Assembly (NCBI GenBank): GCA_047602505.1 | Contig: JASGHD010000001.1 | Span: forward strand, 2,911,929-2,975,928 | Source: Opitutaceae bacterium | Lineage (GTDB): Bacteria > Verrucomicrobiota > Verrucomicrobiia > Opitutales > Opitutaceae | Length of the DNA stretch: 64,000 bases | Reading direction: 5' to 3' | Shown: positions 3,001 to 43,865 of the stretch, piece after piece | How the letters are laid out: each line of letters begins with the position of its first letter | Position numbering within the stretch: position 1 is the stretch's first letter | Notes under the pieces: model-generated | Told to the model about the DNA's origin: nothing | Database searches by the model: none | Seen by the model: only the letters and a program-made list of their open reading frames with translations | Translations under genes and position numbers: made by a program

Positions 3001-3200
3001 CGCCGTCACCGCGGCGCAGCTCGGTGCGCTCGCCGGCCCGCAATTCGGTGCCTTCACCACCACGCAGCTCGACCAGCTCGCGGCCACGCAGCTCACCGAG
3101 ATCACCACGACCACCGTCCAGGCGCTCGAAACAACCACCGTCGCCGCGCTCACCGTGCATCTGCTCGAGTCGCTCACCGCCACCCAGCTCGGCGCGTTCA
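2..3200. repeat. Tandem 24-bp DNA repeat array (minisatellite-like) that encodes the octapeptide repeats.
   Basis: Units like ctcgccgccctctccaccacccag recur with small variations over about 3.2 kb. Confidence 0.7.
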
Positions 3201-3265
3201 CCGGCGATCAGCTCGCGGTGCTCTCGCCCGCGCAGCTCGCCGCCTACCAGAACGCGCGCGCCTGA
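2..3265 (+). CDS. Octapeptide-repeat protein, 5' partial. About 125 tandem copies of (S/T)(T/A)TQ(L/F)(A/G)AL; probably a secreted or surface low-complexity protein.
   Basis: The frame is open from the window start and is the same frame as the listed ORF 221..3265. Units such as STTQLAAL, SATQFAAL, TATQLAAL, STTQLKGL and TTRQLAAL give an 8-residue periodicity. The C-terminus is non-repetitive (…LTVHLLESLTATQLGAFTGDQLAVLSPAQLAAYQNARA). The opposite-strand and off-frame ORFs here are repeat artefacts. Confidence 0.6.
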   Translation, partial: GLASTQVAALATTQLAALAPDALAGFAAEDLAALSTAQLTAFTAAQFGALTETQVAVLAPAQIAALTATQLAGMDSTQVAALSAAQLAQLSPEQLTLLSLAGLDGFTPAKIAALSSAQLGALGATHLASLAATQVAALAAAQLAALSTTQLNQLSETGIAAFTATQIAALTTTQLAGFSTTQLAGLTAEEVAALGATQLATLSTRQLAALSTTAVAGLTATSFAALSATQLAAFSSTQFGALTTAQLASLAPTQLATLAATELRGLTETQTAALSTTQLAALSATQFAALSTIAIAGLTATQLAALSTTQLKGLAVTGLAALTTRQLAALAGPQLASLSTTQLRGLTATQVGALGATQLAALGTTQVAALTATQLQGLSSNGVAALAPTQLAALATTQLAALTTTGLAGLGTAELAALSTRQLAAFTATQFGALSAEQLAALNITQIRVLTATEIAGLTSTQLGSLAATQLAAFTTTQLAALSATGIKGLTATQLAAFAGTQLGALTAAEFAALSTTQVSQLTATQLAALSTTQLRGLTTTGLSALTATQFAALSTTQLANLSLAQFRGLTSAAVAALSTAQLAALSTTQLASLSTAAVTGLSATDFAALTARQLGAFTATQLAALSTAQVSTLDGELLAAFTTTQVRGLVDTQVGALSTTQLAALTTSQLASLSTGGASGLTATQLTSLSTTQLGALAATEIESLATGALAGLSTTTLAAFTRTQFASLAATGLAALSTTQIAGLGTAQLEVLSATGLAGLTSRQVAALGSTQLATLTAAQLAALSTTGLRGLTAAQIATLTTTQLVALGAEGAAALSATAVSGLSATQLASLTTAQFVSLSADGISGLGTAEFAGLSATQLALLNATELGGLTAAQLAALATAKFETFSPDQLSLLSTSAISGLTAAQLAALNETRLAALGSTQLAALTTAQIGQLTATQIAELDTAQIAGLVRPQLRALGAEQFAALSTTQIAALSGAQFANLTSTELRALSSAQLGAVTAAQLGALAGPQFGAFTTTQLDQLAATQLTEITTTTVQALETTTVAALTVHLLESLTATQLGAFTGDQLAVLSPAQLAAYQNARA

Positions 3266-3314: not shown

Positions 3315-5318
3315 ATGTCCCCCGTTTCACCGCCCTCCGCGCTCCTCCAGACGATGGCCCCCGGCTTCGGCGTCACCGAGCTCATCCGAACCGCGGATAC
3401 ACTCAGGCAGACCGGCCGGGCCGCCGCCATCGAGCCGCTCTACGCCACCTGGATCGCGCGCAACTCCACCCACCCGCTCCTCTACGCCATCCTCTTCAAC
3501 TACTCGGTCACCCTCTCCGACGCCGGCAAACTCGACGCCGCCCGCACCGCCCTCGAGCACGCCCTCGCGCTCAACGCCGACTTCCTGCCCGCCCACATCA
3601 ACCTCGGGCGGCTCTATGAACGCCTCGGCATGGTCGGCCTCGCGCTCGTCCAGTGGTCCGCCGTGAGCACCAAGCTCGCCGCCGTCAACGGCCCCGCCAT
3701 CGCGCACAAGACGATGGCGCTCAACCAGAGCGCCCGCGCGCTCGAGGCCGCCGCCCAGGATGAGCCCGCCGAGGATCTCCTCCGCCAGAGCCTCGAGATC
3801 GACCCGCGCCAGCACGAGGTCGCGCAACACTTCCTCGCCCTGCGCCAACGGCAGTGCAAATGGCCCGTCGTGGTTCCGTGGGAACGCGTCGACCGCGAGA
3901 CCCTCCTGCGCGGCATGTCCCCCCTCTCGTTCGCCGCCTACACCGACGACCCGCTGCTCCAGCTCGCCGCCGCCGCGCACTACAACCGCACCGAGATCGG
4001 CGCGCCCGCCTCGCCACCGCCGGCGCTCGATCGCGCCCGCGCGAGCGGCCCGCGTCTGCGCCTCGGCTACGTCTGCTCGGATTTCCGTGAACACGCGCTC
4101 GGCTACCTCCTCACCGAGGTGCTCGGCCTCCACGACCGCGCCCGGGTCGAGGTTTTTGCCTACTACTGCGGCCCCGAGGCCGCCGACCCGCTCCACGCGC
4201 AGTTCCAGACCACCGCCGATCACTGGGTGCCGATCACCGCGCTCGACGATGCCACCGCCGCCGCGCGCATCGCGGCCGACGGCATCCAGATTCTCGTCGA
4301 TCTCAACGGCTACACCCGCGAAGCCCGCGTGAAACTCTTCGCGCTCCGCCCCGCGCCGGTGCTCGTCAACTGGCTCGGCTACCCCGGCACGATGGCGAGC
4401 CCGTATCACCACTACGTCATCGCCGACGACTGGATCGTCCCGCCCGAGCACGAGCTCTACTTCTCCGAGCGCGTGCTCCGCCTGCCGTGCTACCAGCCCA
4501 GCGCGCGCACCCGCACGGTCGCGCCCGAGCCGCCCACGCGCGCCACCGCCGGCCTGCCGGACGACGCGATCGTCTACTGCTGCTTCAACGGCGCGCACAA
4601 GATCACCCGTTTCACGCTCGACCGCTGGCTCTCCATCCTCGAACGCGTGCCGCGCAGCGTGCTCTGGCTGCTCGGCAGTTCCGACGCCGCACAGGAACGC
4701 CTCCGCTCCCACGCCGCGCGCCGCGGGCTCGATCCGCAACGCCTCGTCTTCGCCCCGAAGCTCGCCAACCCGCACCACCTCGCGCGCTACCCGCTCGCCG
4801 ACCTCTTCCTCGACACCACGCCCTACGGCGCGCACACCACCGCCTCCGACGCACTCTGGATGGGCGTGCCCGTGCTCACGCTCAGCGGTCGCTCCTTCGC
4901 CTCGCGCGTCTGCGGCAGCCTCGTGCGCGCCGCGGGCCTGCCCGAACTCGCCTGCACCCACGCGCTCACGTTCCTCGCCACCGCCGTCGATCTCGGCCTG
5001 CACCCGGAAAAACTCCGCGCGCTCCGCGCCCGGCTCGCCGCCAACCGCGACACCTGCACGCTCTTCGACATGCCGCAGCTCGTCGCCCGCCTCGAGGATC
5101 TCTACGCCGAGATGTGGGCCGCTTGTGAAGCCGGACGCCTCCCGCAGCCCGATCTCGCCAACCTCGACGTCTACCTCGAAGTCGGCGCTCAGCTCGACCA
5201 CGAGGAGATCGATGTGCAGGCGATCGACGACTACCACCAGTTCTGGCGCGAACGGCTCCTCCGCCGCCACGCCTTCCGCCCGCTCTCTCCCGACCGCCGT
5301 CTGGTCGACTTCGCCTGA
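3315..5318 (+). CDS. TPR-repeat glycosyltransferase of the O-GlcNAc transferase (GT41/SPINDLY-like) family.
   Basis: The N-terminal half is TPR-like. The C-terminal half carries the OGT catalytic-domain hallmarks: LRLGYVCSDFREHALGYLL, ILVDLNGYT, VLVNWLGYPGT, YCCFNGAHKITRFTLDRW, LFLDTTPYGAHTTASDALWMGVPVLTLSG. Confidence 0.8.
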   Translation: MSPVSPPSALLQTMAPGFGVTELIRTADTLRQTGRAAAIEPLYATWIARNSTHPLLYAILFNYSVTLSDAGKLDAARTALEHALALNADFLPAHINLGRLYERLGMVGLALVQWSAVSTKLAAVNGPAIAHKTMALNQSARALEAAAQDEPAEDLLRQSLEIDPRQHEVAQHFLALRQRQCKWPVVVPWERVDRETLLRGMSPLSFAAYTDDPLLQLAAAAHYNRTEIGAPASPPPALDRARASGPRLRLGYVCSDFREHALGYLLTEVLGLHDRARVEVFAYYCGPEAADPLHAQFQTTADHWVPITALDDATAAARIAADGIQILVDLNGYTREARVKLFALRPAPVLVNWLGYPGTMASPYHHYVIADDWIVPPEHELYFSERVLRLPCYQPSARTRTVAPEPPTRATAGLPDDAIVYCCFNGAHKITRFTLDRWLSILERVPRSVLWLLGSSDAAQERLRSHAARRGLDPQRLVFAPKLANPHHLARYPLADLFLDTTPYGAHTTASDALWMGVPVLTLSGRSFASRVCGSLVRAAGLPELACTHALTFLATAVDLGLHPEKLRALRARLAANRDTCTLFDMPQLVARLEDLYAEMWAACEAGRLPQPDLANLDVYLEVGAQLDHEEIDVQAIDDYHQFWRERLLRRHAFRPLSPDRRLVDFA

Positions 5319-5360: not shown

Positions 5361-5383
5361 CATGTCAACTATTGGTTGACCTG
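5361..5383. repeat. Palindromic element copy 1 (CATGTCAACTATTGGTTGACcTG; right arm slightly degenerate).
   Basis: A 9-bp inverted repeat around a 5-nt loop. It lies between the convergent 3' ends of the OGT-like gene and cysJ. Confidence 0.6.
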
Positions 5384-5471: not shown

Positions 5472-7187
5472 TCAATACACGTCGCGCTGGTAGCGCCGGC
5501 TGGCGACGAGCGCATCGACATACTCCGCGGCCGCCTCCGGCGAGCGCCCGCCGGCAGTCGCGACAATCTTCAGCAACGCGGCGTGCACGTCCTTCGCCAT
5601 GCGGCTTGCGTCGCCGCACACATACACGTGCGCGCCAGCCTCGAGCCACGCCCACAGCTCCGCGGCCTGCGCGAGCATCCGGTGCTGCACGTAGACCTTC
5701 TCGTTCTGGTCGCGCGACCACGCGAGATCGAGCCGAGTGAGCAACCCGTCCGCGCGCCACGCGAGCAACTCGTCGCGATAGAGGAAATCGGCCGCCTCGC
5801 GCTGGTCGCCGAAGAAGAGCCAGTTGCGCCCCGCCGCCCCGGTCGCGCGGCGCTCGCCGAGAAACGCGCGGAACGGCGCGATGCCCGTGCCCGGCCCGAT
5901 CATGATCACCGGGGTGGCCCCATCGGCGGGGAGACGGAAGCCGCGGTTCGTGTGCACGTACACGCCGGCCGAGCCGATGTTGAGCGCGCGGTCGGCCAGG
6001 AACGTCGAGGCCACGCCGTGCCGCCGCCGGCCGTGCAGCTCGTAGCGCACGGCGCCGACGGTCAGGTGCACCTGGCCCGGAAACGCCTTGGGCGAGGAGG
6101 AGATTGAATACAACCGCGGTTGCAGCGGCCGCAGGAGCCGCACGAACTCGCCGGGCGCCAGCCGCTTCGCTCCCGGCGCACTGACAGCGTCGATCACATG
6201 GTGCAGCACCGCTGCCGGCGCCAGACCACACGCGGCGAGCAGCTCCGGCGTCGGTTTCCCCAGATCGAAATTGCGCACCAGCGCCGTGCGCAGTGGCAAC
6301 TCGCCGGCGGGCGTGGGCACCGGCTCCTCGCCATCGCACCCCAGCGCCGCCGCGACGGTGTCGGCCAACGCGGGATCGTTGAGCGGCACCAGTCCGAGTG
6401 CGTCGCCCGCTTCGTAGGTGATCCCTGAATCCGCGAGCGAAAACTCGACATGGTTCACCTCCTTTTCCGAGCCGGACCCGCTCAACCGGCGCACCGCGAG
6501 CAGCGGAGCAGGGAAGGGACGCGCGCGGCTGTAGGCGGGCTCGCTCCCCGGCTCCGCGGGCGCGGCCGCCGGGGTTGTCGATGGATTGGCCGGCGTGTCC
6601 CCGGCGAGCACGCCTAGGGCGGCGCCGAGCCACGCCTCGAATTTTGCGCTGTCACCCGCCTCGCACTCGGCGACCGGCAACAGCCGCTTCGCCCCGAGCG
6701 CGCCGAGCCGCTCGTCGAACTCCTTCCCGCACTGGCAGAACTTCGCGTAGTTGCGGTCGCCGAGCGCGCACACGGCGAAGGTGAGCTGCTCGAACCGCGG
6801 GGCCCCGGCGCGGGCGAGCGCGGCGTGCAGGACCTTCGCGTTGTCGGGCGGCTCGCCGTCGCCATACGTGCTCGTGATCACGAGCACGGTCGTCTCCTGC
6901 GCGAGTGCGGCGAGCGCGACTTCGCCCATGTCGCGCACGGTCGGCGCGAACCCGCGTTTCTTCGCTTCCTTGGCAAACTTCTTCGCGAGCCCTTCACACG
7001 TGCCGGTCTGCGATCCGTAGACGACGAGCAGCGTCTTCGCCGGCGCGGGCGGGGCGGCGGGCGCGGGCGGCGCCCCGGTCGCGATTTCCTGGCGACTGTA
7101 GAGGCCGGCGAGGAAGCCGTTGAGCCACGCGCGTTGCTCGGGTGTGAACGGTGCGGTTTCGGGCAGACAGGGGGCGGCGACGGTCAT
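5472..7187 (-). CDS. cysJ: Sulfite reductase [NADPH] flavoprotein alpha subunit, CysJ-like (flavodoxin + FAD/NADPH oxidoreductase).
   Basis: Flavodoxin-like stretch LLVVYGSQTGTCEGLAKKFAKEAKK…VITSTYGDGEPPDN. FAD motif RLYSISSSPK. NADPH motif GPGTGIAPFRAF. C-terminal YVCGDASRMAKDV…YQRDVY. Confidence 0.8.
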   Translation of the reverse strand: MTVAAPCLPETAPFTPEQRAWLNGFLAGLYSRQEIATGAPPAPAAPPAPAKTLLVVYGSQTGTCEGLAKKFAKEAKKRGFAPTVRDMGEVALAALAQETTVLVITSTYGDGEPPDNAKVLHAALARAGAPRFEQLTFAVCALGDRNYAKFCQCGKEFDERLGALGAKRLLPVAECEAGDSAKFEAWLGAALGVLAGDTPANPSTTPAAAPAEPGSEPAYSRARPFPAPLLAVRRLSGSGSEKEVNHVEFSLADSGITYEAGDALGLVPLNDPALADTVAAALGCDGEEPVPTPAGELPLRTALVRNFDLGKPTPELLAACGLAPAAVLHHVIDAVSAPGAKRLAPGEFVRLLRPLQPRLYSISSSPKAFPGQVHLTVGAVRYELHGRRRHGVASTFLADRALNIGSAGVYVHTNRGFRLPADGATPVIMIGPGTGIAPFRAFLGERRATGAAGRNWLFFGDQREAADFLYRDELLAWRADGLLTRLDLAWSRDQNEKVYVQHRMLAQAAELWAWLEAGAHVYVCGDASRMAKDVHAALLKIVATAGGRSPEAAAEYVDALVASRRYQRDVY

Positions 7188-12010: not shown

Positions 12011-12394
12011 ACGTTGTCCGAGGTGGGCGGCGTTGCCCCCAACGCCGTCGCGCGCCCGAGCCGCAGAAGACAGGCCTGCGCGCACGGCTGACTTGCCCTT
12101 CCGCCACGGGCCGAGTCCACAACCCGCTTGAGGGCAAGCGGGTCCACCCGCAAGCGAGCAGGCCCGCCTTCCGGATTAGCGTCAATGAGCGTCCATTAGC
12201 GGTTCCTCCCTTCGTCTCGCCCGCCTCCGTCCGACTTTCTGCTGAAATCTTCTAAGAAACCCGCGGCTCGCGTGTCTTCATGGGGTGGAGCCTCCACGGC
12301 TCCGTTTTCCGCCGCCATGGACGCCCCGGCCACCGCCCAAGTTTTCTCGCCACCTCCCGGTATTTCCGGTCTGGTGGCGGCGCAAACCCCGCGC

Positions 12395-12901
12395 ATGGAT
12401 CCGGAGCCACCCACCTTGGCTGCGTTGTTCGAAAAGGAGGAGAGCGGACTCCTGCGCTACGCACTCGGGCTCACGGGTCGCCGCTCTGTCACCGAGGAGT
12501 TGGTACAGGAGGCGTTTCTCCGCCTCCACCAGTCGTGGGCCGAGGTCGAGAACCCTCGCGCTTGGCTCTACCGCACCGTCCGCAACCTCTCCCTCAACCA
12601 CCTCCGCGACCACCCCGCCGAGGCCGAGCTCGATCCCGACACCGCCACCGGCGACGCGCGCTCCGCCGCCGAGCGCCTCGGCCGCGACGAGGCCGTGGGC
12701 ACCGTCCGGCTGCTCCTCGCCGAGCTGCCCGCCGCCGACCGCCGCCTCATCCACCTCAAGTACCACGAGGAGCTCCAGTATCAGGAGATCGGACGCCGCA
12801 CCGGCCTGAGCACCGGCAACGTCGGTTTCCGCCTGCACCACCTCCTCAAATCGCTCGCCGACGCGCTTCGCCGCGCCGGCATCGAAGGAAGCGAGGGCTG
12901 A
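12395..12901 (+). CDS. ECF (sigma-70 family) RNA polymerase sigma factor.
   Basis: Region-2 motif EELVQEAFLRLHQSW…YRTVRNLSLNHLRD and region-4 HTH YQEIGRRTGLSTGNVGFRLHHL. An alternative start exists at 12272. Confidence 0.75.
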   Translation: MDPEPPTLAALFEKEESGLLRYALGLTGRRSVTEELVQEAFLRLHQSWAEVENPRAWLYRTVRNLSLNHLRDHPAEAELDPDTATGDARSAAERLGRDEAVGTVRLLLAELPAADRRLIHLKYHEELQYQEIGRRTGLSTGNVGFRLHHLLKSLADALRRAGIEGSEG

Positions 12902-12903
12902 AC

Positions 12904-15624
12904 ATGAATTCCGCCAACCAACCGCCCGCTCCGCACCGCCCGCCCGACGACCAGCTCGAGGAACGCCTCGTCGCCTGGGTCCTCGGCGAGGCGTCCGACT
13001 TCGAGATCGCCGCGCTCCAGGCCGCCGTCGCCGCCCGCCCCGAGCTCGCCGCCTTCAAACGCCGCATCGAAGCCGTCCACGGTCTCGTCGCCACCGCCGC
13101 GCGCCCCGAGGCCGCGCCGCTCCGCCTTTCCCCCGACCGCCGCGCCAAACTCCTCGCCGTGATCGGCTCCGCCTCCGCTGTAGCCGGTGTCGCCGACCCC
13201 GGCCAATCCTCCGCCGCTCCCAAGCCCGCCGCTTCCACGAAACCCTCCGCCGTGCGTCTGCCGCGCCCAACCGAGCGCCCGTGGTGGCGCAACGACTGGT
13301 TCTACTCCGCCGCCGCCTGCGTGGTGATCAGTATTGGCGGACTCTGGATGCTAAGCACGGTGCCGAAGGAGAGTGAGACTGCGGCCAAGGTTGCGATGTT
13401 CGATTTGGCTGTTCCGATGGAGAGCCAAGAGAACGACGAGGCGATTGGCGCTCTGCCGGAGCCGATGAACACGGTCGGCTATTCGGAGATCACCACGGTG
13501 ATTAAGCCGGCCCCGTTGGTATTCAACGCGCCGCCAGTGGTGCCGAAGTCGACGCGTTCGCTCTCGGTGCAACCCAGCATGACCTTCGGCATGAATGCAC
13601 CGGCTGCCGCTGCGCCTCGTGCGGCTTGGTCGGCTCAACCGCAGCGCCAAGTCGAGATCGCCAGTGCGCGTGGCTATGCTGGAACGACCGATGAGGGGTC
13701 GACCGGGGTGCTGGACAAGTTCGAGGTCTCGGCGGATGCGAACTTCGGATATCAGGCGTCACAGACTATGGCGGGCACGCGCATTCGCACAGAACTCAAG
13801 GATGTCGCTTCCCCGATCTCGGGCGTCTCTAGCCAATTTCTGAAAGACACCGGCGCGACCAACACCGACTCGCTCTTGGGCTACAGCTCAAACACGGGCG
13901 CTGGTGGCCTTGCAGGAAACTATGCGGGGAAATCCGCTGCCTCCCGCGACAGCTTCCTCTCCAAGCGCAAGACCGAGCGCAACGGTGGCAAGGGTGGGGC
14001 TCCAGCTCCGGCCGCGCCGGTGGTCGGTGGCGAAGCAGAGGAAGTCGTGGTGCTCTCGCCATTCGAGGTCTCGCGTTCTCACGACTATGGCTACCTAGGC
14101 GGCAATCGTCCGGCGAAGCGTCCCAAGCACTCTGCATCCTCGGCGACCACGGCCGGCATGGGCCCGGGCGGCCTCGATCAAAACCAAGTGCTCCCGCCCG
14201 CGGCGTCCACCACGTCCACTCCGTCCACCCAGTCCACCGCCGATTCCGACAAACCCCTCCCGCGCCCCGCCCAGAAGCCGCTCCCGCCGCCTGCCGCTGA
14301 TGAAACCAGCGCCGCGCAGGAGCCCGTCTCCACGTTCTCGCTCCACGTACGCGACGCCTCGTTCAAGCTCGCGCTGGCCGCGCTCGCTGCCGGCCGCGTA
14401 CCCGATCCGGCCTCGATCCGCCCCGAGGAGTTCTACAACGCCTTCGACTACGGCGACCCGGCGCCGGGTGCGGGAGAAAAAGTCTCCTGCCGCGTCGAGC
14501 AGTCGGCGCATCCGTTCGCGCAGCAGCGCAACCTCGTGCGCATCGCCGTGCGCGTGCCGGCGACCGGTCGCGGCAGCGGCACGCCGCTCAACCTCACCGT
14601 GCTCCTCGACACCTCCGGCTCGATGGAGCGCCCCGACCGCCGCGCCGCCGTGCGCGCCGCGTTGGCCACGTTGGTCGGACTGCTCGGGCCGAACGACCGG
14701 CTCACGCTCATCGGCTTCGCGCGCCAGCCGCGCCTGCTCGCCGAGTCGTTCGATGGCGCTCACGCCAGCCAGGCGCTCGGTCTGCTCGACTCCACGCCCG
14801 CCGAGGGCGGCACCAACCTGGAAGAGGCGCTCAAGCTCGGCGGTGAGCTCGCCCGACGCCTCTTCGCCGAGGCCGCGCAGAACCGCATCGTGCTCCTTAC
14901 CGACGGCGCCGCCAACCTCGGCAACGCCGAGCCGGAGCGCCTCGCCGCCGCCATCGAGACGCTGCGCAGCCAGCGCATCGCGTTCGACGCCTGCGGCGTG
15001 GGCCTCGAGGGCGTCGAGGACGAGATGCTCGAGGCGCTCACCCGCAAGGGCGACGGCCGCTACTACGTGCTCGATTCGCCCGAGGCGGCCGACGCCGGTT
15101 TCGCGCACCAGCTCGCCGGCGCATTCCGCCCCGCCGCCGAGAACGTGAAGCTTCAGGTGCGTTTCAACCCGGCGCGCGTTGGCCGCTACCGGCTCGTCGG
15201 CTTCGAGAAACACCGCCTGCGCGAGGACGATTTCCGCAACGACGCCGTCGACGCCGCCGAGCTCGCCGCCGAGGAGGCCGCCGTGGCCGTGTACGAAGTC
15301 GAGGCGCTCCCGCAGGGCGAGGGCGAGCTTGGCGAGGTCTTCGTCCGCTTCCGCGACGCCGCGTCGAAGACCATGGTCGAGCGCTCGTGGACGTTGCCCT
15401 ACGAGTCGCGCGCCGCGGCCTTCGACCGCGCCTTGCCCAGTCTCCAGCTTGCCGGCACCGCCGCCGCGCTCGCCGAGAAACTCCGCGGTGGCCCCGCCGG
15501 CGACCGCGTCGACCTCGACGCCCTCGCACCGATCGTGAACGCCCAGCGCGCCCGCCGCCCCGACGACAAGCGCATCCAGGACCTCGCCACGCTGTTCGAG
15601 CAGGTTCGGAAGATGAAGAAATGA
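12904..15624 (+). CDS. Anti-sigma factor fused to a von Willebrand factor type-A (VWA) domain, YfbK-like (906 aa).
   Basis: The start is 2 bp after the sigma-factor stop. N-terminal anti-sigma region, then one TM helix (WFYSAAACVVISIGGLWMLSTV), a long Pro/Ala/Ser-rich linker, and a VWA domain (LNLTVLLDTSGSMERPDRR…GGTNLEEAL…IVLLTDGAANLG) with a YfbK-like C-terminal extension. Confidence 0.75.
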   Translation: MNSANQPPAPHRPPDDQLEERLVAWVLGEASDFEIAALQAAVAARPELAAFKRRIEAVHGLVATAARPEAAPLRLSPDRRAKLLAVIGSASAVAGVADPGQSSAAPKPAASTKPSAVRLPRPTERPWWRNDWFYSAAACVVISIGGLWMLSTVPKESETAAKVAMFDLAVPMESQENDEAIGALPEPMNTVGYSEITTVIKPAPLVFNAPPVVPKSTRSLSVQPSMTFGMNAPAAAAPRAAWSAQPQRQVEIASARGYAGTTDEGSTGVLDKFEVSADANFGYQASQTMAGTRIRTELKDVASPISGVSSQFLKDTGATNTDSLLGYSSNTGAGGLAGNYAGKSAASRDSFLSKRKTERNGGKGGAPAPAAPVVGGEAEEVVVLSPFEVSRSHDYGYLGGNRPAKRPKHSASSATTAGMGPGGLDQNQVLPPAASTTSTPSTQSTADSDKPLPRPAQKPLPPPAADETSAAQEPVSTFSLHVRDASFKLALAALAAGRVPDPASIRPEEFYNAFDYGDPAPGAGEKVSCRVEQSAHPFAQQRNLVRIAVRVPATGRGSGTPLNLTVLLDTSGSMERPDRRAAVRAALATLVGLLGPNDRLTLIGFARQPRLLAESFDGAHASQALGLLDSTPAEGGTNLEEALKLGGELARRLFAEAAQNRIVLLTDGAANLGNAEPERLAAAIETLRSQRIAFDACGVGLEGVEDEMLEALTRKGDGRYYVLDSPEAADAGFAHQLAGAFRPAAENVKLQVRFNPARVGRYRLVGFEKHRLREDDFRNDAVDAAELAAEEAAVAVYEVEALPQGEGELGEVFVRFRDAASKTMVERSWTLPYESRAAAFDRALPSLQLAGTAAALAEKLRGGPAGDRVDLDALAPIVNAQRARRPDDKRIQDLATLFEQVRKMKK

Positions 15625-15641
15625 GAGCCGGTCTTCCAATG

Positions 15642-15717
15642 GTAGGGCGAACCGTCCCCGGTGAGCCGAAGCTCGGCCCGCGACTGAACACGGCTCGGCG
15701 GGGACGCCTCGCCCTAC
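15642..15717. repeat. REP-like inverted-repeat element, long copy (GTAGGGCGAACCGTCCCCGGTGAGCCG…CGGCTCGGCGGGGACGCCTCGCCCTAC).
   Basis: Imperfect palindrome with arms of about 27 nt. This copy carries an extra internal segment. It lies between the anti-sigma/VWA gene and the giant gene. Confidence 0.65.
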
Positions 15718-15874
15718 CATCGGACCATCCGCCCGCTCCGTCGGATCCGTCCGCTGCCTACGCCTGACATTTCCCTGACAAACCCCTGACCCGCCCCTGA
15801 CGACTTCGCGCGCCGCGTGTGCGAGAATCACGCACCCCGCTTCCGCGCCATCGCTTTCAACCCGAAGGAACTCC

Positions 15875-18800
15875 ATGAACGCCATCACCTCGCTCGGCTC
15901 CACGATTCCGCAACTTGCTTGCCGCTTGTTCCGAGGTGGACCGCGTTGCCCTCAACGCGGTCAGACGCGATTGTTCGTTGCCGCCTTGTTCGCCCTCACG
16001 GGCGCGCTCGCCGCGGCGCCGAAACCGGCCGACACCGCGAAAACCTCCGCCACGCTCACACCTGACGGCGGGCGGATCGTCGTCGATGTGCAGGGCGTGC
16101 CGCCGGCAGTGCCGCTGTTCTTCTCGGCCGCCGCCGAGCAGACCGTGCGCCTCAGCGCCGCCGAGATCACCGGCGAGCTGCGCCTGAAACTCCACGTCGT
16201 GCAGGGCAAACCCGAGGTGCTCGCGCTCGGCCTCAGCGGCGAGGGCGAGGTCACCGAAGTGAGCGGCGAAGGCCTTGCCTCGTGGGCGGTGCGCCAAGTG
16301 CCGCTCTCCGGGAAACGTTTCCTCGACCTGCGTCCGGCGCTCGCCGAGGGCGCGCCCTTACCGCGCGATCTCGACCTCGTCGTCCGCACGCGTCTCCGCA
16401 AACCCACCGTGCCTGGCGCCGCCTCCGTGCTCATCGCCGCTCCCGGCGACGCCGTGGGCTTCGCCTCCACGATCACCCTCCAGGCCGACGCCGCGCTTGA
16501 TCTTCGCGTGACGGCCGCGAGCGGTCTCGTCGCGCTGGGCGAACAGCGCAGCCCGCGCGATCCGGTGCGTTTCCAGACCACCGGCGAGGGCGCGCTCACG
16601 GTCCGTCTCACCCCGCGCGGTGCGGCTCCGGCCGAAGCCGAGCTCCTCGGCGCGCAACTCTCCGGCAAGATCAACGAGACCGCGAAGAGCGCGGAGTTCC
16701 GCCTGCGCGCGCAGCTCCGCTCCGCGAAGGCCGGCGCGCGGCTCCCGCTCCTCAAGGGCAGCGCCGCCCCGAGCGACAAGGCCGCCGGCGACGGCTGGCA
16801 CCTCGAACTCGCGCCGGCCGACAGCGCGTTCCAGGACTACGAGCTCGTGACCGAGCGCGAGGGCGCGCTGGCCGTCGATCTGCCGTTCGCCGCCGCGATC
16901 CGCGAAGCGGGGGAGTGGCGCGTGCTCGATTTCTCGATGCCGGCCGGCGCGGTCGTGCCGATCCAGCTCGACGGTCTGCCGGCCGGCGTGAGCTTCGATC
17001 CCGAGCGGCCCGTGCTGCCGGTCGCCACGGCGCAGGGTTGGCAGGGTTTCCTCCCGGCCGACGGTGCCACGGCGCTCGCGTGGAAGCATGCCGCCAAGGT
17101 CGTCGAGGGCGCGCTGTTCTTCACCAGCAGCGAGCAGACCGATTCGCGCCTCGGCGCCGGCCTGTTGCGCCAGGAAGCGACGCTCGCGCTCCAGATTCTC
17201 CAGGGAAAACTCACCGCGCTCCGTATCCGCCTCGACGGGCCGGGCGAGATCGTGGGCGTCGAGGGCGCGAACCTCCTGAGCTGGCGCGTGGTGCCGGCCG
17301 AGGGCGCCCGCGCGCTCGAGGTGCAGTTCAGCCGCCCGATCGAGCAGACCAGCGCGATCACGGTGCGCAGCCAGACGGAGCTCGGCGGCTTCCCGATTCG
17401 CGTGGAACCGCTGCGGCTCTCGCCCGAGGGCGTTGTGCGCCACTCCGGTTTCCTGCGCGTGGCCAACGACGGCGCGGTGCGTCTCGAGGTCGCCGAGGCC
17501 TCCGGCATGATGCAGCTCGCACCCGAGCAGTATCCGACCGGCGAGCTCGACGACGACGCGGTGCGGCAGGTCTTCGTGTACCGGTTCCCGGCGGCGACCT
17601 ACAGCTACCGCCTCCTCGCCTCGCAGATTCAGCCGGAGGTCGGCGTCTCCGCGATCCTCACCTACGAGCTCGGCGAAACCGACCGCACCATCGCGGCGAG
17701 CCTCGAACTGGACATCCGCGAGGCGCCGTTGCGTGACTGGACGCTCCAGATCCCGGCCGACTACACGGTGGTCGGCGTGACCGGCGGCGACGTGAGCGAC
17801 TTCATCGCCGAATCGACCGCGGTCGACGGCCGGCGCGCGTTGAAGGTGCTGTTCGCCGAGCCGGTCGAGGGGCGGCAATTGCTCCAGCTCCGCCTCGAGA
17901 AGAACCAGGCCGCCGCGGCGGGCGAGTGGGCGTTGCCGGCGCTGCGTTTCCCCGGCGCGAAGTCGGTCCGCGGCCATATCGGAGCCGTGGCGACGCCGGG
18001 CTACCGTCTTGTGCCGGCCGGCGTCGACAAGCTCGTCGAGGTGCCGCTGAGCTATTTCCCGCAGCAGACCGCGCGGCTCCAGCAGGCGTGGCGGTTGCGC
18101 GACGCCGAGTGGTCGGCCGCGCTGAAGATCGAGGCGCTCGGGCAGAGCGTGCAGGCCGACGTTTTCCACCTCTATACGGTGAAGGAGGGCGTGGTCTACG
18201 GCAGCGTGCTGCTGAACTATTTCGTCGTCGGCGCGCCGGCGACCGAGTGGCGCCTCGCGGTGCCCGCCGAGGTGGGCAACATCGACGTGGTCGGCCAGAA
18301 CGTCCGCCGCGACTGGCGGCGCGAGGGCGACCAGCTCGTTGTTTCACTCCATCAGCCCGTGCTCGGCGCGGCGACGTTGCTCGTGACCTTCGAACAGCCG
18401 ATGAGCGCGCGCGGCGGCACGATCCAGCCCGGCCAAGTGCGCCCGCTCGGCGTGCAGGCGGAGCGCGGCTACGTGCAGGTCGTGAGCCCCGCGCAGGTGA
18501 AGCACGAGATCCGCAAGGCCGAGGGCGGTCTCCTGAAGCTGGAGCCGCTGGAGCTGCCCACCGAGTTCCGCCTGCTCACCAGCTCGCCCTCGCTCGCGCT
18601 CTACCAGTACACCGCGCGGCCGTTCGCGCTCGAGGTGGGCGTCGAGTGGTACGACGCCGGCGAGACCGTCGACCAGGTCGTCGATTTTGCGAAGCTCTCC
18701 AGCCAGATCTCCCGCGACGGCCAGGTCGTGACCGACGCGCAGTTCTTCGTGAAGACCCGCGGCCGCAAGGCTCTGCGGCTTGAGCTCCCCGCTGGCGCGA

Positions 18801-21800
18801 AGCTCTGGGAGGCGCGCGTCGACAACGAGATCGTCAACGCCCGAGCCGACGGCAACCAGACGCTCGTGCCGCTGCCGGCGAAGCTGAATCCCAACGACCC
18901 GGTGGCCGTCGCGCTGCGTCTCGGCCAGGCGGCGGGCGGCAGCGCGACCATCAAGCTCGTCGCGCCGCGCACCGTGGCGCCGAGCGTCATCAACGAATGG
19001 ACGCTGCACGCCGACTCCGGCCGCCTGCTCGCCCCGCGCGGCGGCAACGCCGAGCTGCTCCGCCCCGCGCTCACCGAGACCGGTTTCGAGTGGATCGCTG
19101 GCCGCGGCGTGTTCACTGCGGGACTGCTGCTGGCGTTCACCGCGCTTGGCGCGTTGTTGGCCCGCGGCTCGTCGCGCCAGCAGATCTTCGCGCTGATCCT
19201 CTTCGCCAACGTCACGATCGCCGCGTTGCTCGTCGCCGCTTCGGCGATGGTCAACCGTCGCTCGAACATCCAGGAGCTCACCTATGCCGCCACGATGGTG
19301 CCCGCCGAGGAGGCCGTGACGATCACGGTGCTGAACGGGACCGCTTGGCAGGCGATGGTCTCGTGGTGGGGCGTGGTCGCGGTGGTGGTCGGCGCTGTGG
19401 TGACCGTGGGCTCGCGTTTCGTGGGTAGGGCGAACCCTCCGGGTGAGCCGCAACCATCGGCTCACCGGGGACGGTTCGCCCTACCTGTGGGTGTCGCGCT
19501 CGTCTCCGCCGGCCTGCTCGCGCAGCACGGCGGGGCGATCATCTTCTACGGCTGGGGTGCGCTCGCCGTGTGGCTGCTGCTCTTCATGCCGACGCTCGGC
19601 CGCTGGAACCACGATCGCCGCGAGCGCCAGTTCGCCGAACAGGCGGAGCCGCCGCCGGTGCCCGGTGGCGAGTCTTCGGGTTCCGGTGCGGCCTCGGTGC
19701 TGCCGCTGGTCGCGCTGCTCGGCGCGCTCGCCTTCGGTTTCGGCGCGCAACCGGCGCAGGCGCAGAATCAGGTCGACCAGATCACGCCGACACCGGTGGA
19801 TCCGGCCTTGGCTGGGCGACCGGCACAATCGGCCGTGCAGACCTGGACGATTCGCGAAGACCGCCTCTACGGCGAGCTGGAGCTCACCGTGCGCGGCGGG
19901 CCCGGCGACAGCTTCCTCCTGCTGCGCCCGCCCGCGGTGCTGACCGAGTTCAAGGCCGACGGCCTGCGTCTCGGAAAATCCGAGCTCAACGGCCAGACTT
20001 CGTACTTCGTCGCGCCCGAGCGCGAAGGCCTGCTCACGGCGCGCGTGCGCTTCGAGCTGCCGGTGCCGAAGGGGACGACGCAGATCGTGCTCCCGACCGG
20101 CGCCGCGGCCACGCAGCGCGTGACTGTTGCCCTCGATCAGGGCGGCTGGGAGTTCGCCTCGCCGGCGGCGGTGCAGGTGGTGCCGACGCCGAATCTCGGC
20201 GACGCCCGCAGCGGCGCGACCCTCGTGCTCGCGCCGCAGGGCGCGGCGGTCGTGCAGTTGCTGCCCAAGCGCCGCGACCTCGCGACCGAGGCGACGCAGT
20301 TCTTCGCCGAGACGACGCAGCTCTTCCTCCCCGGCCCCGGCGTGGTGAACGGCCGCATGGTTGTCTCGATCCGCCCGGTGCAGGGCCGCGTTTCCTCGCT
20401 CGTGCTCGACGTGCCCGCGGGGCTGACCGTGGGCACGGTGGAGGGCGACGGGACGGAGGTCTCCACGTGGCGCTTCGACCCGGAGAAACGCCGGCTGGCG
20501 ATCACGCTCGCCTCGCCGCAGGAGCGGCAGTTCCGCGTCGGCATCGAGACGCAGCTCGGGACGGGCGCGCTGCCGTTCGATCTCACGCTCACGCCGCTGC
20601 GCGTGGTCGGCGCCGCCGGCGATGTCGGCACGCTCGCGCTCGCCTTCGGCGGCGACGCGCAGCCGGAGAGCGTGCGCGCCAGCGGGCTCTCGCCGGTGAA
20701 CACCGAGGATTTCGACCCCGAGCTGATTCCCGAGACCAAGGACGGCGAACCGAGCGCGACGCTCCAGCACGTGTGGCGTTTCGGCCAGGGCGGCGGCAGC
20801 GTGTCGCTCAAGATCGCGCCGGTCGCGCCCGAGGTGCGCGTCGTGGGCCGGCAGGTGCTCTCGCTCGACGATGACCGTCTGGTGATGGCCGTCGATCTCG
20901 CGGCGGAGATCACGCGCGTCGGGTTGTTCAAACTCAGTTTCGTGCTGCCCGTGGGCCTCGAGGTCGAGGCGCTCAGCGGCAAGGCGCTCAGCCATTGGAC
21001 GGAGGCGCAGGAGGGCAACCAACGCGTGGTGACGCTGCACCTCAACGGCCGCACGATCGGCGACGAGAAGTTCACGCTCACGCTCGCCGGCGCCGCGCCC
21101 CGTGCGCAGGAGGCCTGGCCGATCCCGCACCTGCAGGTGCGCGAGGCCACGCGTCAGACTGGCGAGGCGCTCGTCGTGCCCGGCAAGGGCCTGCGGCTGC
21201 GCGCGGTGGAGCGCGAGAAGGTTACGCAGCTCGACCCGCGACAGGTCGGCGGTCTGCAACCCGGCACGCTGGCGTTCCGGCTGTTGCAGGAGGATTGGTC
21301 GGTGAAACTAGGTATCGAGGCGCTGGAGCCGTGGGTGACGGTGCAGGCGCTGCAGGAGACGACCGTGCGCGAGGGCCAGACGCTCGTGCGGCTCGCGCTG
21401 CGCTACCGCGTGGAGAACGCCGCGGTGAAACAATTCCGCGTGAAGCTGCCCGGCCTCGGCGAGGAGCGCGCCCGCACGGTGCGCGCCACCGGCGCCGCGG
21501 TGAGCGACATGGTGCGCGTCGCCGGCAGCGACGACACCTGGGAGATTCGCCTGCAGCGCGGCATCGCCGGCGAGACCGACGTGCAGATCGAGTTCCAGGG
21601 GCCGTCGACCGGCGACCAGAAGCTGGAGACGGTGGCGATGCCGGAGTTCGTCGGCGTGCGGCAGGCGGTGCAGTTCGCCGCGGTGCGCGCGGGCGGCCGG
21701 CTCGAGCTCGAGACCGGCGCGCTTCCACGCGGTTGGTCGCGCACCGACTGGAGCGCGGTGCCCGCGATCCTGCAGAACCGCACCGACCGGAGCGTGCCGG

Positions 21801-22942
21801 CGCTATGTTTCCGCGTGGCCGAGGCCGAGGGGCCGCTGCCGGTGGCGGTGCGGCGGCATGAAGTTGCCGAGGCACTCAAGCTCCGCGTGACGCAGGGCGA
21901 CCTCACGACGTTGTTCTCGCCCGCGGGCGCATGCCTCACGGCGGTGGACCTGCGCGTCGACGTGCTCGAGAAGAGCACGCTGCGCGTGCGGCTGCCGGAG
22001 GGCGCGCGGCTTTTCAACACGCTCGTCAACGGCGAGAGCGTGTCGGTCGTGCGCGAGGGCGACGCGTTCCTCTTCCATGTGACGCCGAACACGGCGGGCG
22101 AGCGCTCGGCGGCGGTGCGGCTCGTGTACTCGGCGCCCGGAGGCAAGGGCGGCGACGTCGGGCTCGTCGGCCCGCGGCTCAACGTTCCGCTGGAGAATGT
22201 GACGTGGCGCGTGGTGATCCCGCCCGGCTACGAGCTGGAGAGCTACGGCGGCGGGCTGCGGTTGCGCGAGGAGCGCTACGGCAGCTCGTTCGGCGGGCTG
22301 GAGCAGTACCAGTCGTCGATCGTCTCGAAGCGTTCGGCCGAGTCGAAGAAGGCCGTGGCGATGATGCAGGAGGCGAGTTCGCTCCTGCAGAAGGGCGACC
22401 AGCAGAAGGCCAGCGAGGTGCTCTCACGCGCCTACAACACGCAGGCGCTCGACGAGGCCGCGAACGAGGACGCCCGCGTGCAGCTCCGGAATCTGAAGAC
22501 GCAGCAGACGGTGCTCGGCCTCAACACGCGCCGCCAGCGCCTCTACCTCGACAACCGCGTCGACGCCGCGCGCAACGAGCAGCTCGAGCAGGCCGCCAGC
22601 CTGAATCCGTTCATGCAGGGCAACGTGAACTTCAACCCGCAGCAGGTCGACCAGCTGCTCATGGGCAACTCGGCCGACGAGAACACCGCGCTGCGCGGCA
22701 TCGCCGACCGGCTTGTCGACCAGCAGCTCGCCGCCGAGCCGGCGCCGCGCGCGATCGACGTGACGCTCACCGAGCGCGGCCGGGTGTTCACGTTCACCCG
22801 CAGCCTGCAGGTCGAAGGCGACAAGCCGCTCCAGCTCACGCTCGATCTCGCGCGCACGGCGCGTCCGCCGTACGCCACCGCAATCGTGCTGCTCCTGGCG
22901 ATCGCCGGCATCGCCATCATCCCGCTCGTGCGGCGGAAGTGA
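15875..22942 (+). CDS. Giant (2355 aa) secreted, membrane-anchored protein of unknown function.
   Basis: N-terminal signal peptide (FVAALFALTGALAAAPKPA). Mostly non-repetitive, beta-rich-looking sequence. A cluster of hydrophobic helices near residues 1080-1230. C-terminal TM anchor (IVLLLAIAGIAIIPLVRRK). No catalytic motif was recognised. Confidence 0.65.
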   Translation: MNAITSLGSTIPQLACRLFRGGPRCPQRGQTRLFVAALFALTGALAAAPKPADTAKTSATLTPDGGRIVVDVQGVPPAVPLFFSAAAEQTVRLSAAEITGELRLKLHVVQGKPEVLALGLSGEGEVTEVSGEGLASWAVRQVPLSGKRFLDLRPALAEGAPLPRDLDLVVRTRLRKPTVPGAASVLIAAPGDAVGFASTITLQADAALDLRVTAASGLVALGEQRSPRDPVRFQTTGEGALTVRLTPRGAAPAEAELLGAQLSGKINETAKSAEFRLRAQLRSAKAGARLPLLKGSAAPSDKAAGDGWHLELAPADSAFQDYELVTEREGALAVDLPFAAAIREAGEWRVLDFSMPAGAVVPIQLDGLPAGVSFDPERPVLPVATAQGWQGFLPADGATALAWKHAAKVVEGALFFTSSEQTDSRLGAGLLRQEATLALQILQGKLTALRIRLDGPGEIVGVEGANLLSWRVVPAEGARALEVQFSRPIEQTSAITVRSQTELGGFPIRVEPLRLSPEGVVRHSGFLRVANDGAVRLEVAEASGMMQLAPEQYPTGELDDDAVRQVFVYRFPAATYSYRLLASQIQPEVGVSAILTYELGETDRTIAASLELDIREAPLRDWTLQIPADYTVVGVTGGDVSDFIAESTAVDGRRALKVLFAEPVEGRQLLQLRLEKNQAAAAGEWALPALRFPGAKSVRGHIGAVATPGYRLVPAGVDKLVEVPLSYFPQQTARLQQAWRLRDAEWSAALKIEALGQSVQADVFHLYTVKEGVVYGSVLLNYFVVGAPATEWRLAVPAEVGNIDVVGQNVRRDWRREGDQLVVSLHQPVLGAATLLVTFEQPMSARGGTIQPGQVRPLGVQAERGYVQVVSPAQVKHEIRKAEGGLLKLEPLELPTEFRLLTSSPSLALYQYTARPFALEVGVEWYDAGETVDQVVDFAKLSSQISRDGQVVTDAQFFVKTRGRKALRLELPAGAKLWEARVDNEIVNARADGNQTLVPLPAKLNPNDPVAVALRLGQAAGGSATIKLVAPRTVAPSVINEWTLHADSGRLLAPRGGNAELLRPALTETGFEWIAGRGVFTAGLLLAFTALGALLARGSSRQQIFALILFANVTIAALLVAASAMVNRRSNIQELTYAATMVPAEEAVTITVLNGTAWQAMVSWWGVVAVVVGAVVTVGSRFVGRANPPGEPQPSAHRGRFALPVGVALVSAGLLAQHGGAIIFYGWGALAVWLLLFMPTLGRWNHDRRERQFAEQAEPPPVPGGESSGSGAASVLPLVALLGALAFGFGAQPAQAQNQVDQITPTPVDPALAGRPAQSAVQTWTIREDRLYGELELTVRGGPGDSFLLLRPPAVLTEFKADGLRLGKSELNGQTSYFVAPEREGLLTARVRFELPVPKGTTQIVLPTGAAATQRVTVALDQGGWEFASPAAVQVVPTPNLGDARSGATLVLAPQGAAVVQLLPKRRDLATEATQFFAETTQLFLPGPGVVNGRMVVSIRPVQGRVSSLVLDVPAGLTVGTVEGDGTEVSTWRFDPEKRRLAITLASPQERQFRVGIETQLGTGALPFDLTLTPLRVVGAAGDVGTLALAFGGDAQPESVRASGLSPVNTEDFDPELIPETKDGEPSATLQHVWRFGQGGGSVSLKIAPVAPEVRVVGRQVLSLDDDRLVMAVDLAAEITRVGLFKLSFVLPVGLEVEALSGKALSHWTEAQEGNQRVVTLHLNGRTIGDEKFTLTLAGAAPRAQEAWPIPHLQVREATRQTGEALVVPGKGLRLRAVEREKVTQLDPRQVGGLQPGTLAFRLLQEDWSVKLGIEALEPWVTVQALQETTVREGQTLVRLALRYRVENAAVKQFRVKLPGLGEERARTVRATGAAVSDMVRVAGSDDTWEIRLQRGIAGETDVQIEFQGPSTGDQKLETVAMPEFVGVRQAVQFAAVRAGGRLELETGALPRGWSRTDWSAVPAILQNRTDRSVPALCFRVAEAEGPLPVAVRRHEVAEALKLRVTQGDLTTLFSPAGACLTAVDLRVDVLEKSTLRVRLPEGARLFNTLVNGESVSVVREGDAFLFHVTPNTAGERSAAVRLVYSAPGGKGGDVGLVGPRLNVPLENVTWRVVIPPGYELESYGGGLRLREERYGSSFGGLEQYQSSIVSKRSAESKKAVAMMQEASSLLQKGDQQKASEVLSRAYNTQALDEAANEDARVQLRNLKTQQTVLGLNTRRQRLYLDNRVDAARNEQLEQAASLNPFMQGNVNFNPQQVDQLLMGNSADENTALRGIADRLVDQQLAAEPAPRAIDVTLTERGRVFTFTRSLQVEGDKPLQLTLDLARTARPPYATAIVLLLAIAGIAIIPLVRRK
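19425..19484. repeat. REP-like element copy lying in-frame inside the giant ORF.
   Basis: GTAGGGCGAACCCTCCGGGTGAGCCGCAACCATCGGCTCACCGGGGACGGTTCGCCCTAC is 60 bp and translates as VGRANPPGEPQPSAHRGRFALP without breaking the frame. Confidence 0.6.
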
Positions 22943-23194
22943 GCGGCGGGGCGCGGCACTGTGAACTGACGATCGAGGATAGGGCAGGCCCGCTGGGCCC
23001 GCCGGGCGCAGTACCGCGGCGTAGTGAAAGCCGCCAAGGCTTTCGTCCGGGACGAACGGTCGAAGTTCTGGCGAACTTCGCTACCGCAAGCGTCCGCCGA
23101 TTGCGCAGGGATCGCTCAAAGGCGAAGGGAGAGCAGGGCCGCCGGCTCCGCTGGGCAAAAGCGCGCTCGGCGCGACCAAGCGGAGACGAACCCA

Positions 23195-23217
23195 AATGTC
23201 AACTAATGGTTGACATG
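23195..23217. repeat. Palindromic element copy 2 (aATGTCAACTAATGGTTGACATG).
   Basis: Same 9-bp arms with loop TAATG. It lies 250 bp downstream of the giant gene and 335 bp upstream of uxuA. Confidence 0.6.
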
Positions 23218-40872: not shown

Positions 40873-41571
40873 TCAGGTCTGCGTGGTGGTTTCGGTGGCG
40901 AGCGGTGCCGCGAGCGCGGCAAGCAGGAGCGGCAGGCCGATGCAGAGGCAGATCGAGGCGGACATCACCGCGCCGGCGAGTCGCGGCGCGATGGGCAGCA
41001 GCGGCACATGGAGCAGAAACACGACGATGCTGGCGAGGAACGTCCACGCGAGCTTCGGGCTGCGACGGCGGTACAGCCACGCGATGGCACCGCCGGCGAC
41101 GTAGGCGATGGAGAAGCCGGCGATGTCGAGGGCGACGAACCGGATCCAGTTCGTCGGCCCGAGCGCGCGGGCGATCTCGGGCGGTGGTGGCGGCACGGGA
41201 TGGAGCTGCAGCGCCAGCGTGGGCAGGTAGGACGTGATTTCGATGACGAGGGCGACGGCCAGCGCGCTGGCGATCACCGCCGTCGCGACCGGGCGGAACC
41301 GGATCTCGGCGAACGCATAGAGCACGACCAGCGGCAGCAGCGCCGAGGCGTAGAGCAGCGCGCCGCCCGTCTGGACCGCGCCCCAGAGCCGCGAGACCTC
41401 GATCCCCGAGAAATCGCCGGAGACGAGCATCTCCGGCGTGACCGCCGGCGGCGCGAGCAACGTGGGCAAGGCGTAGAGGAGCAGTCCCGCCGCGGAGAGC
41501 GCGGCGAGCCAGAGCGCGGGATTGCGGGTGTCGGTCGGAAGCGTGTGCGGGGCGAGCGCTGCGTCGTTCAT
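40873..41571 (-). CDS. Hypothetical integral membrane protein.
   Basis: Several TM helices. No family recognised. Confidence 0.55.
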   Translation of the reverse strand: MNDAALAPHTLPTDTRNPALWLAALSAAGLLLYALPTLLAPPAVTPEMLVSGDFSGIEVSRLWGAVQTGGALLYASALLPLVVLYAFAEIRFRPVATAVIASALAVALVIEITSYLPTLALQLHPVPPPPPEIARALGPTNWIRFVALDIAGFSIAYVAGGAIAWLYRRRSPKLAWTFLASIVVFLLHVPLLPIAPRLAGAVMSASICLCIGLPLLLAALAAPLATETTTQT

Positions 41572-41654
41572 GGGGCAACCTATCCCGCGCGGTGAGATGT
41601 GCCGGCGGATTTGTGACAGGCGGTGCCGGCCGCGGGTCGGACGGCAGGCGGTCG

Positions 41655-41707
41655 GTAGGGCGAACCCTCCGGGTGAGCCGCGGCTCGGCGGGGACGCCTC
41701 GCCCTAC
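41655..41707. repeat. REP-like inverted-repeat element copy.
   Basis: GTAGGGCGAACCCTCCGGGTGAGCCGCGGCTCGGCGGGGACGCCTCGCCCTAC. Confidence 0.65.
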
Positions 41708-42119
41708 CTCGACCAAGGCCGTTTCGGCGATCTGCCGTCGTGGCGTACGCGATGATCAACGACCGCAAGAGCGCTCCCGCCGCCGACTACCTCGACGCGC
41801 TGCGTGCCTACCGGATCAAGGCATTCCTCTGGAGCCAGCGCGAGGCGCTGGCGACCGAGGTCGGGGCGAACCGAGGCGGCTGTGTGGCTCCGACGAGGCC
41901 GGAAGCGGGTCCGCTGATGGACGCTGATCAACGCTGATAGGTGGACGAACGGCGTAGAATAGCGTGTCGCAGAACACCGGCGACGAATGCTGGACTTCCA
42001 GGACGCGCTAAGTCAGAGAGATAGCCGTCTCGGCGCTTTGGCCGGGTTGTGGCAAGAGGCGCGCTATGTATCTCAATCCCCGCCTTTGACGAACCACTGC
42101 TTGCTACATCGAAATTACC

Positions 42120-43787: not shown

Positions 43788-43865
43788 GGTGGGTTCAGGG
43801 GGCGGGCGTTTCCCGTAGGGCCGGACCGGGCGTCCTATGCTGGGCGCTTTGCCTGCCGGTGGAAG

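Follow-up and report, generated by a model that had tools for sequence, protein, structure and literature searches.

GTAG-tagged REP doublets in an Opitutaceae genome and the RAYT transposase that probably copies them

Taken together, our data identify, with a probability of roughly 90%, the dispersed inverted repeats in a 64-kb stretch of Opitutaceae DNA (hereafter the window, that is, the whole 64,000-nt stretch analysed) as a family of GTAG-tagged REPs, mostly arranged as tail-to-tail doublets (REPINs) and presumably copied by a dedicated RAYT transposase. The anatomy of the repeats, the covariation within them, their spread over PVC-labelled contigs, their adjacency to RAYT genes elsewhere and their presence or absence in relatives of the host, which is a soil or water Verrucomicrobium, are directly supported. 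The way in which the elements move, and any function that they may have for the host, would follow by homology and by analogy with the REP/RAYT literature on E. coli and Pseudomonas. The first-pass annotation had called the repeats REP-like, a term that can now be made precise: they are GTAG-tagged REPs in inverted doublets, and a RAYT stands beside identical arms in related genomes.

All five locations proposed for the family proved to be right, with four inverted-repeat elements at 15642-15717, 19425-19484, 41655-41707 and 43866-43919, and a half element at 61934-61985. When the window, which has a G+C content of 69%, was searched for the left-arm 20-mer GTAGGGCGAACCGTCCCCGG with up to three mismatches, six matches were found against 0.01 expected, and the right-arm 18-mer motif gave seven against 0.20; no shuffled sequence attained either count. 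Folded as RNA, the four full elements reach -35.5 to -63.2 kcal/mol (z -2.8 to -8.6), and DNA folding of full elements gave -20.5 and -28.8 kcal/mol. The claim that each copy folds into a long hairpin therefore holds for the four full elements, but not for 61934-61985 (z +0.4 to +0.7). At the gathering threshold, Rfam gave no match over the whole window, and tRNA and tmRNA scans of the window found nothing. A generic search of the window for GTAG followed by a hairpin returned mostly noise, and no second REP family was established by it.

The repeated unit is not the palindrome of 53-76 bp initially described, but each of its arms of 25-26 nt. Every arm follows the scheme GTAG + GGC-GA-NNNN-TCC(C)-NNNN-GA-GCC, with a GTAG head, a GGC/GCC outer stem, a tandem G.A/A.G mismatch, a variable 4-bp inner stem and a TCC(C) loop, so that the stem consists of 3 + 4 bp with the tandem G.A mismatch between them. 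Three arm types occur in the window, with inner stems ACCG/CGGT (A), ACCC/GGGT (A') and GGCG/CGCC (B), and the sole differences between them are compensatory changes in these inner 4 bp. There are nine arms at five sites, four of which are extragenic; eight of the nine arms carry the GTAG head and one carries GCAG. The latter, at 61935-61960 on the plus strand, reads GCAG-GGC-GA-GTCG-TCCC-CGAC-GA-GCC and adds a further compensatory stem, GTCG/CGAC. It is a complete single arm, and the region had thus been mistaken for a degenerate remnant: it holds an intact singlet REP.

The head GTAGGGCGA and the tail GAGCC were the sole criteria for selecting arms, which we took from the window and from 120 loci of other genomes. 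All four inner pairs were present in 137 of the 154 arms, with at least nine Watson-Crick variants. In the set of 35 arms that differ in sequence, 95.6% of cells were paired and changes on both sides were seen at all four inner pairs; the covariation score was attained by none of 500 shuffles, and in a control in which the partner was slid by 1-3 columns, pairing fell to 22-43%. The outer GGC/GCC pairs carry no information here, as they are fixed by the selection, and the scan pattern constrained the left half of many arms. The minimum-energy DNA fold is exactly the arm hairpin in three of the four arm types. A single arm as DNA folds weakly (-5 to -7 kcal/mol, z -0.6 to -1.3), no better than shuffles, and the case for the arm hairpin therefore rests on covariation and not on energy. 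In addition, where an A-type arm faces a B arm (15642, 41655 and 43866), the long hairpin is mismatched exactly where the arms are self-complementary. We conclude that each arm is a GTAG-tagged REP and that the long elements are tail-to-tail REP doublets.

With their GTAG heads pointing outwards, the doublets can also form one long hairpin across spacers of 2-24 nt (2, 2, 9 and 24 nt in the window). Across the window and the loci of other genomes, 43 pairs of neighbouring arms have this tail-to-tail arrangement, at gaps of 2-87 nt; 20 head-to-head neighbours, at 14-39 nt, lie mostly within arrays, and singlet arms are also present among the loci.

Specifically, REPIN 1 (15641-15718, given like the other doublets without strand) comprises an A arm at 15642-15667 (+) and a B arm at 15692-15717 (-), with a spacer of 24 nt. 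A VWA/YfbK_C gene (12280-15624, +) ends 18 nt before it, and 157 nt separate it from the following ATG, that of a gene of 2355 aa. REPIN 2 (19424-19485) joins an A' arm at 19425-19449 (+) to an A arm at 19459-19484 (-) through a spacer of 9 nt. REPIN 3 (41654-41708), with A' at 41655-41679 (+), B at 41682-41707 (-) and a spacer of 2 nt, is located 84 nt upstream of the ATG (41571) of a minus-strand ORF, 40873-41571. REPIN 4 (43865-43920) has an A arm at 43866-43891 (+) and a B arm at 43894-43919 (-), also separated by 2 nt. It maps within a gap between two co-directional minus-strand ABC-2 permease genes, 42 nt beyond the stop of the upstream one; this gap of 174 bp, already pointed out in the first reading, is real and spans 43788-43961. 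The singlet at 61935-61960 lies 94 nt upstream of the start (61841, minus strand) of a NamZ-like gene. As a separate observation, a patch of low G+C at about 42000-42600 (53% vs 69%), without any ORF of the usual high GC3, adjoins REPIN 3 and separates it from the ABC-2 operon.

The copies had all been assigned to intergenic gaps. This is the case for four of the five sites, which are extragenic, whereas the copy at 19425-19484 lies in frame inside a conserved gene, 15875-22942 (+). The ORF has a GC3 of 0.91, and its product, a conserved Opitutaceae membrane protein of about 2,300 aa (2355 aa in the window), has 321 homologues at E <= 1e-10, nearly all of about 2,300 aa and including an Opitutus terrae protein. 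The high GC3 and the similar length of these homologues indicate that 15875-22942 is a real single gene. The corresponding NCBI product is annotated at 2318 aa (QM691_12005, 100% identical, MAG Opitutaceae bacterium), and no Pfam domain was found in the host gene. REPIN 2 contributes about 20 residues in frame, approximately VGRANPPGEPQPSAHRGRFALP, between two hydrophobic segments. The recurring peptide that had been considered artefactual, which as VGRTVPGEPRLGGDASPY is the frame-1 translation of 43866-43919, is indeed confined to shadow frames at the other sites, but one doublet is translated within a real, conserved protein.

The same loop of this protein is occupied in different ways among its orthologues. 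REPIN 2 is absent from the closest ones (P0002-P0008, 82-89% identity), and is present in one further genome (protein P0009, from the independent assembly GCA_035415285.1; locus L122). An orthologue of 66% identity (P0031) has a degenerate doublet at the same loop, and another (P0012) carries there a single REP of another family, GTAGGGCCGGCGCTCGTCGCCGGGCC (L205, 3966-3995), whose peptide VGPALVAG resembles the O. terrae GTAG-18 peptide. We also observed, in a further group of orthologues, an insert of about 20 residues at the same loop (AAAALAGGIAVPVGIDRILP; L206, about 4190-4230).

In a comparison of the window with L122, REPIN 2 is identical at 60 of 62 positions, both differences falling in the spacer, and its arms are identical at 52/52. 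The flanks are identical at 50/64 and 61/75 positions, that is, at about 80%. By our own calculation, if the arms had been conserved only at the rate of the flanks (0.8 per site), all 52 positions would have stayed unchanged about once in 100,000 cases. We conclude that the arms are either under constraint or kept uniform.

Other features of the window may be reported here. Just past the stop of the 2355-aa gene, at 23021-23045 (+) and 23061-23084 (-), small GTAG-headed hairpins, GTAGTGAAAGCCGCCAAGGCTTTCG and GTAGCGAAGTTCGCCAGAACTTCG, face each other; they could be due to chance, a terminator or another REP type. In addition, a second repeat, the palindrome TGTCAAC-N5-GTTGACA, often extended to CATGTCAAC...GTTGACATG, is found six times in the window against 0.03 expected, at 5363-5381, 23197-23215, 46113-46131, 55930-55948, 60287-60305 and 62311-62329. 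As read from the ORF coordinates, these copies are at or near gene boundaries, and the motif could function as an operator, or as a promoter element similar to a -35 box. At the start of the window, a long high-GC3 ORF (2-3265, +), which extends beyond this edge, is composed of about 100 tandem units of 24 nt that encode an 8-residue repeat.

Presence or absence among related strains had been proposed as a check, and its outcome agrees with a family of mobile repeats: in addition to REPIN 2, which is missing from the closest orthologues and kept in L122, the REPIN 1 site is variable. In the closest relative, L121, the orthologous site holds a different GTAG doublet, GTAGGGGCGTCGCTTGCGACGCCC ... 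GGGCGGCGCAAGCACCGCCCCTAC (L121, 2685-2765), and in L123 the site has no window-type arm. The nature of the L121 doublet indicates that one and the same site is occupied by different REP families in related genomes.

A scan of 185,579 species genomes with the 20-nt pattern GGTAGGGCGARSCSTCCSSG retrieved at least 120 loci. Among the matches listed, full arms were found in 80 of the 104 PVC-labelled loci (labels Opitutae, Verrucomicrobiae, unspecified Verrucomicrobiota, Spartobacteria, Lentisphaerae and Kiritimatiellae), in six of six loci without a phylum label, and in none of the ten non-PVC-labelled loci. The matches in Gammaproteobacteria, Myxococcota, Cyanobacteria, Actinomycetota, Streptomyces, Stutzerimonas and similar are due to chance, the rest of the arm being missing. 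Single MAGs contain up to at least seven separate loci, again among the matches listed. Most of the arm-bearing records are MAGs, whose individual labels are fallible, yet several independent MAGs represent each class. Consequently, the family is not lineage-specific, as had been supposed, since full arms occur in contigs labelled Opitutae, Verrucomicrobiae, Spartobacteria, Lentisphaerae and Kiritimatiellae.

No RAYT gene lies within the 64-kb window, and neither of two RAYT profile searches listed that of the source genome among its 120 proteins. A tblastn search with an E. coli YafM sequence led to locus L055, whose ORF scores 85.4 bits against the NCBIfam model NF047646 REP_Tyr_transpos (cut-off 80) and matches the E. 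coli TnpArep structure PDB 4ER8 at E = 6e-11; the Pfam Y1_Tnp match is weak (19.6 bits, cut-off 23). This gene is located between two glycine-cleavage genes, as judged by eye from the ORF translations, and is flanked on both sides by near-identical arrays of arms of about 200 nt, with a period of about 87 nt and with an arm B identical to that of the window. The profile search returned thousands of relatives, many of them named by JGI "REP element-mobilizing transposase RayT". Across 24 RAYT sequences, the HUH histidines H72 and H74 of the MPDH-x-H motif are invariant, and Y125 of Y-x-R-x-N-P is nearly so (at least 90%).

The association with the arms is recurrent. In L204, the best of the cognate loci, the RAYT gene (P0313) lies between gatB and aspS and is flanked by two mutually inverted REPINs, at 2915-2990 and 3447-3515, whose A' and B arms match those of the window, the loop of one B arm being one base shorter. 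Window-type arms also adjoin the RAYT genes of L098, L124, L129 and L136, and the arms beside all these RAYTs (L055, L098, L124, L129, L136 and L204) start with GTAGGG throughout. Among 80 metagenome RAYT loci, most are flanked by GTAGGG-headed hairpins with a stem sequence particular to each RAYT, and more distant RAYTs accompanied by different REPs were found in L042, in the isolate Pontiella desulfatans and in a Nibricoccus MAG. Where the RAYTs are only 35% identical (L042; L207 and L209), the REPs beside them differ as well, which is what cognate pairing would predict.

The RAYT neighbourhoods consist of housekeeping genes or ars operons and are not mobile-element regions. The L042 gene lies, like that of L204, between aspS and gatB, and has GTGG-headed REPs at 6336-6396 and 6917-6977; the L042 and L204 RAYTs are 35-47% identical to that of L055. 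As both occupy the same interval with different REPs, the aspS-gatB interval suggests a conserved chromosomal home of the RAYT gene, with REPs turning over around it. We also noted that the database annotation of several RAYTs (P0254, P0263, P0268, P0279, P0300 and P0323) describes them as fused to ArsR or to a low-molecular-weight phosphatase (arsenate reductase), and that in L124 (2362-4531) the RAYT gene has an LMWPc gene on one side and a gene for an ArsP permease on the other. These fusion annotations may be gene calls reading through stop-free REPs.

The anatomy of the arms also bears on other origins of the repeats. The elements had been described as MITE-like, and as internally deleted insertion sequences, whose terminal inverted repeats of 27 nt would be recognised in double-stranded form by a DDE transposase, they would indeed be expected to have the size (53-76 bp), the inverted ends, the dispersal, the lack of coding capacity and the presence or absence among relatives that we observe. 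However, no direct repeat is common to the flanks of any of the four doublets, hence there is no target-site duplication; every arm forms a covarying hairpin of its own, arms also occur singly and in alternating arrays, and spacers go down to 2 nt. In addition, the sole gene repeatedly flanked by the arms is a RAYT and not a DDE transposase, and an IS element with these ends was not seen in the window or in the loci. We therefore regard a MITE origin as very improbable and the label MITE-like as inappropriate. Still less credible, to the point of being negligible, is the idea that the repeats are what remains of a duplicated gene fragment, or a repeated coding motif whose peptide GRTVPGEP...GGDASPY is the product under selection. 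The same peptide does appear in several ORFs and is truly translated in one protein; yet all copies but one (three doublets and the singlet) are found outside high-GC3 frames, the peptide ORFs there being shadow frames opposite real genes, both orientations occur, the A' variant shifts the frame, conservation tracks base pairing instead of codons, and the closest orthologues of the sole host protein do without the segment.

E. coli REPs occur in the malEFG and hisJQMP operons, and the position of REPIN 4 inside an ABC transporter operon recalls them. Together with the great stability of the whole elements as RNA hairpins, and with the location of REPIN 1 and REPIN 4 at 18 and 42 nt past the stops of co-directional genes, this would fit elements that serve mainly as regulatory hairpins of the host (terminators, attenuators or 3' structures that stabilise mRNA), spread by selection and not by a transposase. 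We consider such an origin very unlikely. No T run follows any copy on either strand, so that the copies are not canonical intrinsic terminators, and none has an Rfam match; their orientation to transcription varies, one copy is intragenic and another precedes a gene, and the GTAG head, the covarying arm hairpin and the RAYT association would be left unexplained. A regulatory role is thus best seen as a possible secondary effect and not as an alternative origin. Readings as CRISPR, coding repeats or terminators were likewise rejected on anatomy.

For the GTAG-tagged REP family, the following model can be proposed from homology with characterised systems. The RAYT, a single-copy HUH Y1 transposase of IS200/IS605 type, would bind the folded arm on single-stranded DNA and cleave beside the GTAG head, so that doublets would be excised or copied at a low rate. 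The elements would then persist where the harm is small, that is, past stop codons, between genes of the same direction and in protein loops that tolerate an insertion. Where transcribed, they may serve as 3' hairpins stabilising the upstream mRNA, like REPs in E. coli operons.

A broader hypothesis, which we put forward only tentatively and hold to be rather doubtful, is that the REP type GTAG-GGC-GA-N4-TCC(C)-N4-GA-GCC and its RAYT clade form one system across at least three PVC phyla, with arms actively kept uniform. It draws on the 52/52 identical arms between coding flanks of 80% identity. The three phyla would be Verrucomicrobiota, Lentisphaerota and Kiritimatiellota, and the system may have been inherited vertically since before their split or transferred between them. 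If this were true, it would be among the oldest and most widespread REPIN-RAYT lineages, and a test case for REPINs as long-lived, vertically inherited replicators.

For annotation, the family explains spurious ORFs and peptides, as well as an odd 20-residue loop in a real protein, which are not to be taken as domains. For REP biology, our data leave the current picture of REP/RAYT systems unchanged and add to it a well-defined family, with a tandem G.A mismatch, compensatory sub-types and identified cognate RAYTs, in a superphylum previously surveyed only for Opitutus terrae and a few planctomycetes; our literature search for REPs in other PVC lineages found no paper. The observations that, depending on the lineage, the same membrane-protein loop received REPs from two or more families, and that the arms are far better conserved than their coding flanks, bear on tolerance sites and on the uniformity of the elements.

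The REPIN-RAYT systems of P. fluorescens and E. coli are reportedly the subject of work by Nunvar in 2010, Ton-Hoang in 2012 and Messing in 2012, the last with PDB 4ER8. As in these systems, the hairpin is built from two inverted REPs on either side of a short spacer, a single RAYT gene, located among housekeeping genes, has the same REPs on both sides, each RAYT has a cognate REP, and homology to the E. coli enzyme is detectable. What differs is the phylum of the host, the sequence of the REPs and the clade of the RAYT (about 30% identical to E. coli TnpArep), for which a similar activity is presumed. The REPIN concept, and that of single-copy, vertically inherited RAYTs, is due to Bertels and Rainey (2011, PMC3116915; PMC5581495). 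E. coli BIMEs offer a further parallel: as with their Y and Z REPs, successive arms of different type point in opposite directions and in some cases build up tandem arrays, although the window, unlike the array-forming cases, has simple doublets only. The intragenic copy is comparable to the Rickettsia palindromic elements (RPEs), in which a palindromic repeat is likewise inserted in frame in a functional gene and encodes a short peptide in a tolerant region. RPEs differ in that they are of about 100-150 bp, unrelated in sequence and without a GTAG head or a known RAYT partner; in addition, only one of the five copies is intragenic here.

The closest precedent is in the same bacterial family. 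A survey of GTAG- and CGTC-tagged REPs by Di Nocera et al. (2013; PMC3733652) already describes, for Opitutus terrae, the general behaviour reported here. Those descriptions comprise sub-families that differ by complementary exchanges of residues in the stem, dimers joined tail to tail across spacers of 1-2 bp, REPs located mostly past coding regions, many in-frame intragenic dimers encoding 15-30 residues, and RAYT genes flanked by the repeats. In all these respects, namely compensatory sub-families, tail-to-tail dimers, post-gene sites, in-frame dimers and REP-flanked RAYTs, the window family is alike, and it shares with the O. terrae GTAG-17 to GTAG-20 families (PMC3733652) the GTAG head followed by a stem-loop of 6-9 bp. 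The stem and loop sequences differ, and the conserved tandem G.A mismatch of the window family is not mentioned for the O. terrae families. As the O. terrae REP peptides given there (VAGVADPGPGSASPA, VGPALAAG and GTGVPPV/HGRDARAT) do not match GTAGGGCGA...GAGCC, the repeat analysed here is probably another family of the same kind and not one of the 24 in that survey.
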